NCBI RefSeq assembly: GCF_044324875.1
Contig: NZ_CP172185.1
Length of the DNA: 64,000 nucleotides
Strand: one strand, 5' to 3'
Origin: Escherichia coli
GTDB taxonomy: Bacteria > Pseudomonadota > Gammaproteobacteria > Enterobacterales > Enterobacteriaceae
The notes under the pieces are model-generated. The model was not told where the DNA came from and did not search any database. It was given only the letters and a program-made list of their open reading frames with translations. Position 1 is the first letter of the stretch. Every line of letters begins with the position of its first letter. The translations under genes were made by a program, and so were the position numbers. This document shows positions 48,550 to 48,845 of the stretch, one piece after another.

Positions 48550-48845
48550 TTGGCCACCGTGACAGGTGGCCTTTTCTTTGCCCGTTATCCGGCAATTGTG
48601 GCGCTTCGTCACCTGGCTGATATAATTCCACTGCTTATATTCATTTTTTGCGCAGTAGGTTAATTGTTCAGAAAGGCGGCTCCTTATCGGGGCCGCTTTT
48701 TTTATGCCTGAAAAACCGCGATTTTGTTGTTTTTCAGTTTCACCAGGCCGAACGAAGCCCCGCCCCTGTTCGGGCGTATATCCAGTCTTCATGGTTAAAT
48801 CTCTGTATTAGTGGATGGGTGGCGGCTGTGTGCCGCCAGTCTTTT
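48550..48845 (+). terminator. Cluster of three plus-strand hairpin terminators between the RHH operon and alpA
   Basis: ggccaccgtgacaggtggcc+T-run (~48553-48580), gcggctcc..ggggccgc+T7 (~48683-48712), ggcggctgtgtgccgcc+T-run (~48820-48845). Confidence 0.45.

Follow-up and report, generated by a model that had tools for sequence, protein, structure and literature searches.

The question raised by positions 48550-48845 of the stretch analysed here is whether some 300 bp between two convergent transcription units merely keep these units apart or take part in expression themselves. The stretch (the window) consists of 64,000 nucleotides (nt) of Escherichia coli DNA (contig NZ_CP172185.1, assembly GCF_044324875.1) and contains an element which, by its gene content, is a capsid-forming phage-inducible chromosomal island (cf-PICI). 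On the plus strand of the element a two-gene operon, whose first gene encodes a YlcI/YnfO-family protein that is probably of the ribbon-helix-helix (RHH) type as judged from its structural model, runs towards the 3' end of alpA, the activator gene on the minus strand. The first-pass annotation of the DNA had interpreted the interval as three stacked plus-strand terminators, which insulate alpA from antisense read-through or end a small structured RNA. The reading favoured here, with a probability of about 0.6, is that two convergent paths of expression overlap in the interval: the plus-strand operon, which is terminated, and a minus-strand "bridge", an open reading frame (ORF) that leads without stops from alpA to an icd-like gene. 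The features on which the argument turns are given below, with hairpin energies as dG in kcal/mol and z scores relative to shuffled sequences.

47707-48792, minus strand: bridge ORF, 361 codons, ATG at 48790-48792, 50 nt past the alpA stop codon
48745-48792, minus strand: first 16 codons of the bridge ORF, M(K/N)TGY(T/S)PEQGRGFVRP, conserved and common to all module types
47707-47904, minus strand: icd-like gene, an analogue of kil that forms the in-frame 3' part of the bridge ORF (NF033153, E 4.9e-18)
48845-49033, minus strand: alpA, PICI activator gene (PF05930, E 5e-18)
48089-48268, plus strand: YlcI/YnfO-family gene (NF041551, 63.3 bits against a cutoff of 30; phrog_949, E 6e-24)
48326-48517, plus strand: orf63, second gene of the operon, 63 codons, with a good Shine-Dalgarno sequence
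48552-48579, plus strand: T1, predicted intrinsic terminator of the YlcI/YnfO-orf63 operon (dG -15.7, z -3.1)
48580-48669, plus strand: spacer between T1 and T2, which together with T1 belongs to an optional cassette of ~150 nt
48670-48703, plus strand: T2, predicted intrinsic terminator, near-universal in relatives (dG -21.6, z -5.2)
48708-48737: AU-rich hairpin CTGAAAAAC...GTTTTTCAG between T2 and the start of the bridge ORF (dG -11, z -3.7, alpA sense)
48820-48846, strand unassigned: T3, hairpin with the stem TGGCGGC/GCCGCCA at 48820-48838 (dG -17.7, z -3.6)

Relatives of the locus

Matches to the locus were found by megablast in 1081 of 5426 complete E. coli genomes. Most of them cover only alpA and ~195 nt downstream of it (window 48650-49064, T2 and T3 included); the plus-strand genes and the operator region vary among the relatives. 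The set used for comparison consisted of 67 distinct alpA-downstream variants from IMG/VR and RefSeq, to which L101, a PICI with an unrelated alpA, was added. A scan of genome contigs with AlpA yielded just two distant and uninformative loci. The phage collection contained no DNA match to 48000-49100, and a query with the Icd-like protein matched one record there, which was not P4.

A stop-free frame from alpA to the icd-like gene

Starting within the interval, the bridge ORF passes antisense to T2, T1, orf63, the RHH gene and the operator region, and then continues in frame into the icd-like gene to the stop codon at 47707. An equivalent ORF of at least 175 codons was present in 66 of the 67 distinct variants. 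The sole short one (42 codons, in L066) is one base away from a 497-codon sister, and the difference lies in the A7 run of T2. The frame ends at the icd stop codon in 38 of the 67 variants and 11-28 nt before the icd ATG in 18 more. At its start, the distance from alpA to the ATG is nearly always 52 or 57 nt (94 in one variant type), and the conserved N-terminus also occurs in elements that carry a genuine AntA antirepressor gene after alpA (PF08346, E 1.6e-23). The same layout was seen in the model PICI EcCICFT073, where alpA (7526-7714) is followed by a 428-codon bridge ORF (7767-9053) with T2 at 8016-8043 and the T1 cassette, and where the opposite strand codes for a YlcI/YnfO protein and a 62-codon gene. 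In L101 a 562-codon ORF lies beside the unrelated alpA.

When stop codons were counted by frame in 550 representative codons (one 150-nt tile from each of 11 sequence families), none was found in the bridge frame, as against 33 and 34 in the other two. Every credible plus-strand gene, and there are about 11 protein types, shares its wobble position with the bridge codons; the 100 instances of plus-strand ORFs in this aligned phase all belong to recognisable families, and ORFs in the other phases look spurious. If the codons of 11 plus-strand genes were resampled among synonyms (1000 trials), 8.5 +/- 2.4 antisense stops were expected, with a minimum of 2, and none was observed. Tyrosine amounts to just 0.7%. 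The reverse resampling test was conditioned on plus-strand ORFs that had been picked for openness.

The peptide encoded by the bridge behaves differently from the products of the genes that it connects. In alpA the synonymous fraction of substitutions was 0.75 (0.24 expected) and in the icd-like gene 0.51 (0.25 expected), whereas for the bridge peptide in 48572-48792 it was 0.23 against 0.21 expected, which indicates no purifying selection. The match of residues 313-356 to NF033153 is the sole family match of the bridge ORF, and no domain besides Icd was detected in it. As judged from the comparison of variants, selection keeps the bridge free of stops, whereas the encoded peptide is mosaic and unconserved.

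Since the opposite strand carries a long stop-free frame from alpA to the replication genes, the segment between T1 and T3 is not an empty spacer. The earlier view of 300 bp that merely separate two units is not supported in the presence of a conserved stop-free minus-strand ORF that begins at 48792 and crosses T2 and T1, and minus-strand expression is therefore expected to pass through the interval.

T1 and T2 as predicted one-way terminators

The three plus-strand hairpin and T-run motifs occur where the first-pass annotation had placed them, and the flanking genes, two on the plus strand and the convergent alpA, are those that it had described. A scan of 5 kb gave 13 terminator-like sites (6.5 +/- 2.6 in shuffled sequences). 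Such sites within the span of the bridge ORF numbered 117 for the RHH sense, as against 44 for the alpA sense.

T1 starts 35 nt after the stop codon of orf63. Its stem GGCCACC/GGTGGCC (48552-48558 / 48565-48571) encloses the loop GTGACA and is followed by the U-tract TTTTCTTT at 48572-48579. It was found in 25 of 68 relatives, and its presence is coupled to that of a ~100-nt spacer before T2. The stem is 100% paired across 15 distinct cassette variants, with compensatory changes at two pairs (CG to GC in 5 variants, GC to UA in 1), and the tail has 7-8 U in the RHH sense as against 1-3 U in the alpA sense.

T2 was found in 65 of the 68 relatives. Its core stem GCGGCTCC/GGGGCCGC (48676-48683 / 48689-48696) has one U·G pair and the loop TTATC; A-U pairs lengthen it to 48670-48703, and the U7 tail occupies 48697-48703. 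The consensus scan, which listed T1 and T3, missed T2, most likely because the extended stem consumes part of the T-run. The stems of the relatives fall into three types connected by compensatory changes:

T2 stem type 1: GCGGCUCC/GGGGCCGC
T2 stem type 2: GCGCUCCG/CGGGGCGC, GCAA loop
T2 stem type 3: GCGCUCAG/CUGGGCGC, GUAA loop

On the minus strand the energy of T2 in the window is only -13.1 (z -1.9). Across the relatives it ranges from -13.8 to -23.4 in the RHH sense and from -10.3 to -17.3 in the alpA sense, the RHH sense being always the more stable. A U5-7 tract occurs solely on the RHH sense in all 65 carriers, and the U·G pair of the RHH sense, kept in nearly all relatives, reads as a mismatched C·A on the alpA side. 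The IMG/VR loci L066 and L075 differ in that L066 has lost one base of the A7/T7 homopolymer of T2 (equivalent of window 48697-48703); this loss could be a sequencing error, or mark a slippage-prone site that is able to switch read-through off.

The compensatory changes in the stems, the U-tracts confined to the plus strand and the asymmetry between G·U and C·A in the relatives provide good support for T1 and T2 being genuine unidirectional plus-strand intrinsic terminators. Their placement supports the view that they would halt transcription of the YlcI/YnfO operon that is directed antisense into alpA and int. Taken alone, T1 and T2 are ordinary terminators; the notable part is the architecture that surrounds them.

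The hairpin T3 and smaller structures

By its structure T3 is a weak case of a terminator, with 3 nt (GTC) between the stem and the U5, and in this lineage only. Its T-run, TTTTT at 48842-48846, overlaps the alpA stop codon and is supplied by an A5 run on the minus strand. The hairpin, located 6 nt past the alpA stop and about 27 nt ahead of the bridge-ORF ATG, was kept in 67 of 68 relatives, whereas the plus-strand T-run was present in 12 of 67; in the other 55 the alpA stop is followed by TAATCAGG or TAATCACG. The stem variants GTCGCC and GGCGGT allow G·U pairing only in alpA-sense RNA, and the variant GCCACC favours the opposite sense. Because the T-run is found in so few relatives, T3 is not a conserved terminator. 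Judged by these variants, it is a conserved hairpin at the junction of alpA and the bridge that resembles a terminator in this lineage alone. The description "three stacked terminators" is not supported: the T-run is rare, and two of three variants of the stem form G·U pairs in alpA-sense RNA only. The suggested insulation of alpA is supported for T1 and T2, which are one-way and suitably placed.

As a repeated protein-binding motif the half-site of T3 was rejected: besides the pair at 48820-48838 only one copy was found in this part of the element (48234, in the RHH gene), and TGGCGGC is frequent genome-wide. The stem of the AU-rich hairpin at 48708-48737 is mostly kept across relatives despite differing loops, with a mismatch in some; in one variant a G·U pair is possible in the alpA sense alone. 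A 5-bp stem around the ribosome-binding site of the bridge ORF was also discarded, with one compensatory change in its favour and about nine recombinant variants that break it.

A proposed course of events

In the quiescent state the RHH-like protein would repress the promoter of the icd operon in the divergent region, which contains three TG(A/C)ATCGCAC repeats, and transcripts of the RHH operon would end at T1 and T2, sparing alpA and int from antisense transcription. A helper phage would induce alpA, and transcripts boosted by AlpA would run on past T3. Ribosomes starting at 48792 would translate the bridge and, by analogy with eta/kil of P4, keep these transcripts from premature termination, for example through Rho. 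Minus-strand transcription would in this way extend to icd and the genes for replication, irrespective of what the local repressor is doing. It is proposed to do so because it is coupled to ribosomes and because the hairpins in the minus sense are weak and have no U-tracts. Head-on transcription through the repressor operon may, in addition, silence that operon.

Extended to Gram-negative PICIs in general, for which published descriptions give a single direction of transcription and no identified master repressor, the model would mean that they carry a hidden convergent immunity operon antisense within a leader ORF, and that translation from the helper-induced alpA promoter overrides immunity. 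This extension is tentative, and the odds are rather against it. Such an operon may comprise the RHH-like repressor, a small partner protein, one-way terminators and possibly a 70-nt cis-antisense RNA, and the ORF opposite to it may be selected only for having no stops.

Several points weigh against the two-path reading. The loci are all closely related, with AlpA at least 89% identical except in the added L101, and their counts are therefore not independent; the tiles for the stop counts were clustered by single linkage, and the resampling used the 55 variants with an ORF that reaches icd, a mild selection bias. An attempt to separate the strands by synonymous substitutions in the overlap of the bridge with the RHH gene failed because both frames share the wobble position, which blocks telling which strand's protein is selected there. 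The minus strand of T2 has some U (CUUUCU), and partial termination at this place is conceivable. Finally, when the bridge was scanned for C-rich, G-poor sequence of the Rho-loading kind, no clear signal emerged (C 0.22, G 0.24).

Alternative explanations

A pure insulator, that is, three redundant plus-strand terminators in an otherwise non-coding convergent intergenic region, would account for the presence of all three motifs and for the support that T1 and T2 receive from relatives. It is improbable, because 55 of 67 relatives have no T-run at T3 and because the interval lies inside a selected open frame, whose conserved ATG it contains. Alternatively, the long ORF might encode a functional modular protein of the "Bro network", in line with the annotation in passages of PMC10111431, perhaps an extended Icd, and the hairpins would be incidental. 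The conserved start and the 16-residue N-terminus shared with genuine AntA antirepressors would suit such a protein, as would the in-frame fusion to the Icd-like domain in 38 of 67 variants and the sub-threshold Bro-N fragment (14 bits) that EcCICFT073 keeps. We nevertheless consider it unlikely: Icd is the only domain detected in the window ORF, 48572-48792 displays no selection at the amino acid level, and the sequence is antisense to real genes and promoter DNA, non-homologous between immunity types; moreover, 18 variants stop just before icd without fusion. In T2 a GC-rich stem is preceded by an A-tract and followed by a T-tract, the classic layout of a bidirectional terminator, which would also end the alpA transcripts and make alpA monocistronic. 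But in the minus sense C·A mismatches, one or two in number, are conserved in the stem, and the tail, CUUUCU, is weak; moreover, T2 is situated ~30 codons into a selected frame that can be translated only from transcripts crossing T2, which makes termination in both directions very doubtful.

The structured RNA of the first-pass annotation is compatible with the two-path reading. In the form considered here, the T1-T2 cassette is a small RNA (sRNA) gene with a promoter at TGATATAAT (48618-48626), a candidate extended -10 element located 51 nt upstream of the T2 stem and insulated from upstream transcription by T1. Its product, a plus-strand RNA of ~70-75 nt ending at T2, would be perfectly antisense to bridge codons ~30-53 and would block or cleave the AlpA-driven read-through transcripts, as a counterpart of sar in P22 or OOP in lambda. 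The order terminator, promoter, short unit, terminator fits this proposal, and so does the predicted RNA, in which a weak 5' stem and an AU-rich single-stranded stretch precede a strong terminator with U7. The cassette is present or absent as a whole, and it also occurs beside the unrelated alpA of L101 and in EcCICFT073. TGATATAAT is invariant in 15 distinct cassette variants whose flanks differ, from which its promoter activity is inferred; an invariant 9-mer is, however, weak evidence at 87% mean identity. The -35 region is poor and no promoter was called by the consensus scan, the 5' hairpin has no consistent covariation, and the window contains no trans target. At gathering thresholds no Rfam family was found within 48550-48845 in a search of the whole window, and in 47600-49500 at E up to 10 none was found for the interval, the only families being C4 and c4-a1b1, ~1 kb away; below threshold, the highest scores were those of Atu_C8 (22 bits) and isrD (21 bits), whose alignments cover nothing but the terminator hairpins. 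On balance the sRNA gene is a possibility, and a somewhat unlikely one.

The spacer has further parts: the conserved block GCAGTAGGTTAATTGTTCA, an inverted repeat TTGCC-N8-GGCAA at 48578-48595, and a second one, TGTGGCG-CTT-CGTCACC, at 48597-48613, which in most variants is a perfect 7-bp palindrome (TGTGGCG-CTT-CGYCACA). The two palindromes, just upstream of TGATATAAT, may be a protein-binding site controlling that promoter.

The plus-strand operon and its control region

The YlcI/YnfO-family gene is a candidate for the immunity repressor. The AlphaFold model of its product (predicted local distance difference test, pLDDT, 85) has an extended N-terminus and two helices, and its top structural neighbours are the RHH antitoxins VapB and ParD (template modelling score 0.53-0.63, with non-significant E of 5-8); no match was found among PDB sequences. 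For orf63 domain, family-profile and PHROG searches gave no family match, and homologues or analogues occupy the same position in relatives. In the literature, searches for a connection of PICIs to antisense RNAs or to proteins of the RHH or YlcI/YnfO kind returned nothing relevant. Upstream of the operon lies the control region:

47975-48070, between the RHH gene and the icd-like gene: divergent control region with candidate operators

The three TG(A/C)ATCGCAC copies in it, read from the sequence, are 35 and 46 nt apart. The region is entirely different between variants, as expected of an immunity determinant. Between the stop codon of the RHH gene and the start of orf63 (48278-48304, plus strand) a 12-bp hairpin GCGCCGTGGTGTGAGGTACTGCGGCGC, followed by ATTGTTTT, hardly varies among immunity modules that are non-homologous in other respects; attenuation within the operon or RNA processing may be its role.

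The element and its surroundings

The host is E. coli, with pntB 99.7% identical. Assignment of the element to the capsid-forming class follows from the combination of int, alpA and a replication module with capsid, protease, portal and terminase genes of the element's own. Domain search matched the integrase (PF00589 and PF13356), alpA, the AAA_25 helicase, DUF4222, SSB, PerC, Phage_capsid, Peptidase_S78, Phage_portal, TerL and HNH.

About 35.6 to 50.8 kb of the window: the element, inserted in the 5' part of an AI-2E transporter gene
Minus-strand order, first part: int, alpA, icd-like gene (47707-47904), c4-a1b1 target (47627-47676), C4/CI-type RNA (47472-47559)
Minus-strand order, remainder: second icd-like gene, DUF4222, AAA_25 helicase, SSB, PerC, capsid, protease, portal, HNH, large terminase

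The C4/CI-type antisense RNA (RF01695, 72 bits) and the a1/b1 target (RF03163, 44 bits, just below the gathering score of 46.7) are arranged as in P4, from which it follows that this cf-PICI has RNA immunity of the P4/P1 type besides the RHH-like operon. A second nested minus-strand ORF of 194 codons (47247-47831) starts within the first icd-like gene and continues across both the a1/b1 target and the C4 RNA, its 3' end encoding the second icd-like protein; it is the direct counterpart of P4 eta/kil. The 361-codon bridge and this ORF overlap and thereby connect alpA to the replication genes as a relay of reading frames.

The AI-2E transporter ORF beside int (50835-51719, plus strand) lacks ~40 N-terminal positions of the profile (match from position 40 of 327), which suggests a tqsA-like gene as the site of PICI insertion, near its 5' end. 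An imperfect inverted repeat of 34-36 nt (49314-49359 / 50694-50729; 78-79% complementary) flanks int and is rich in GTTGTTYCAC-like units, to which AlpA, or the integrase at arm-type sites, may bind. In its chromosomal part the window contains full-length matches to STnc560 (281 bits; 3378-3591, minus strand) and STnc490 (146 bits; 32012-32135, minus strand), two Hfq-binding sRNA families that are unconnected to the terminators and the bridge.

Implications

PICIs and cf-PICIs are widespread gene-transfer vehicles in Enterobacteria. The locus described here offers testable parts: a candidate repressor operon with a diversity of immunity types, one-way terminators, and a read-through ORF whose evolution bears clear marks of translation. 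Dual-strand coding is, moreover, seen here in an unusually clean form, in which one strand is selected for protein and the other only for an open frame, down to the choice of synonymous codons.

Gene callers mishandle such loci. In some genomes the Prokaryotic Genome Annotation Pipeline (PGAP) labels pieces of the long ORF as pseudogenes ("Icd-like", "ash family", "hypothetical, missing C-terminus": L001 6485-6628, L002 5550-6143, L101 2706-3296). In others antisense genes are omitted: the annotation of L002 leaves out the antisense RHH and 62-codon genes, both of which are included in that of CFT073.

Comparison with known systems

T1 and T2 resemble canonical terminators of convergent junctions in the GC-rich stem, the short loop, the adjacent U-tract and the position just past an operon. 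They differ from them in lying inside an ORF of the opposite strand and in being built for one direction, G·U on one strand being C·A on the other.

The immI regions of P1 and P7 have the order c4 RNA, icd, ant, and P22 has the RHH repressors Arc and Mnt, ant and the antisense RNA sar. The window locus shares with them a C4-type RNA, icd, remnants of AntA/Bro-type antirepressors, small RHH-like regulators and possibly a short cis-antisense RNA. Unlike in these phages, the RHH operon of the window is convergent with a leader ORF and nested in it, and the master activator is AlpA.

In Gram-negative PICIs, which have been divided into Integration, Bro, Replication and Late zones, passages of PMC10111431 describe a "Bro zone" after alpA whose ORFs are seen as domain-swapping proteins. 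The bridge is in the same place, downstream of int and alpA, and the zone likewise consists of mosaic, segment-swapping ORFs with homologues of the C4 and isrK RNAs inside. Those passages make no mention of a YlcI/YnfO operon on the antisense strand, of terminators belonging to it, or of a frame selected to be free of stops.

The closest parallel is with P4 (NC_001609), where a 214-codon ORF (8168-8812) begins at the 3' end of vis, the AlpA homologue, and has kil as its last part, after crossing the C4/CI RNA and its c4-a1b1 target; the Pfam family Phage_ASH is in effect the translation of this eta/kil ORF. According to passages of PMC10111431, which cite Forti et al. 1999, translation of eta prevents premature termination of transcripts from the upstream promoter. 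In both systems a long ORF at or just after a gene of the AlpA family spans immunity determinants and ends in frame as a 3' gene of the Icd/Kil type. The window bridge has the position after alpA, the in-frame icd-like gene at its 3' end, and the variable RHH operon and operators within its span. However, eta overlaps the end of vis, whereas the bridge starts 50 nt past alpA. The ORF of P4 covers only RNA immunity elements (seqA and CI RNA), with nothing on the other strand, whereas the bridge crosses a complete antisense protein operon with promoter, operators and two terminators, the wobble positions of the two strands being aligned. Judged by its layout, the window architecture is a variation on the eta/kil arrangement of P4, and it is also present in EcCICFT073, the model PICI in which a reporter fused to ORF3 depends on AlpA (PMC6092414).

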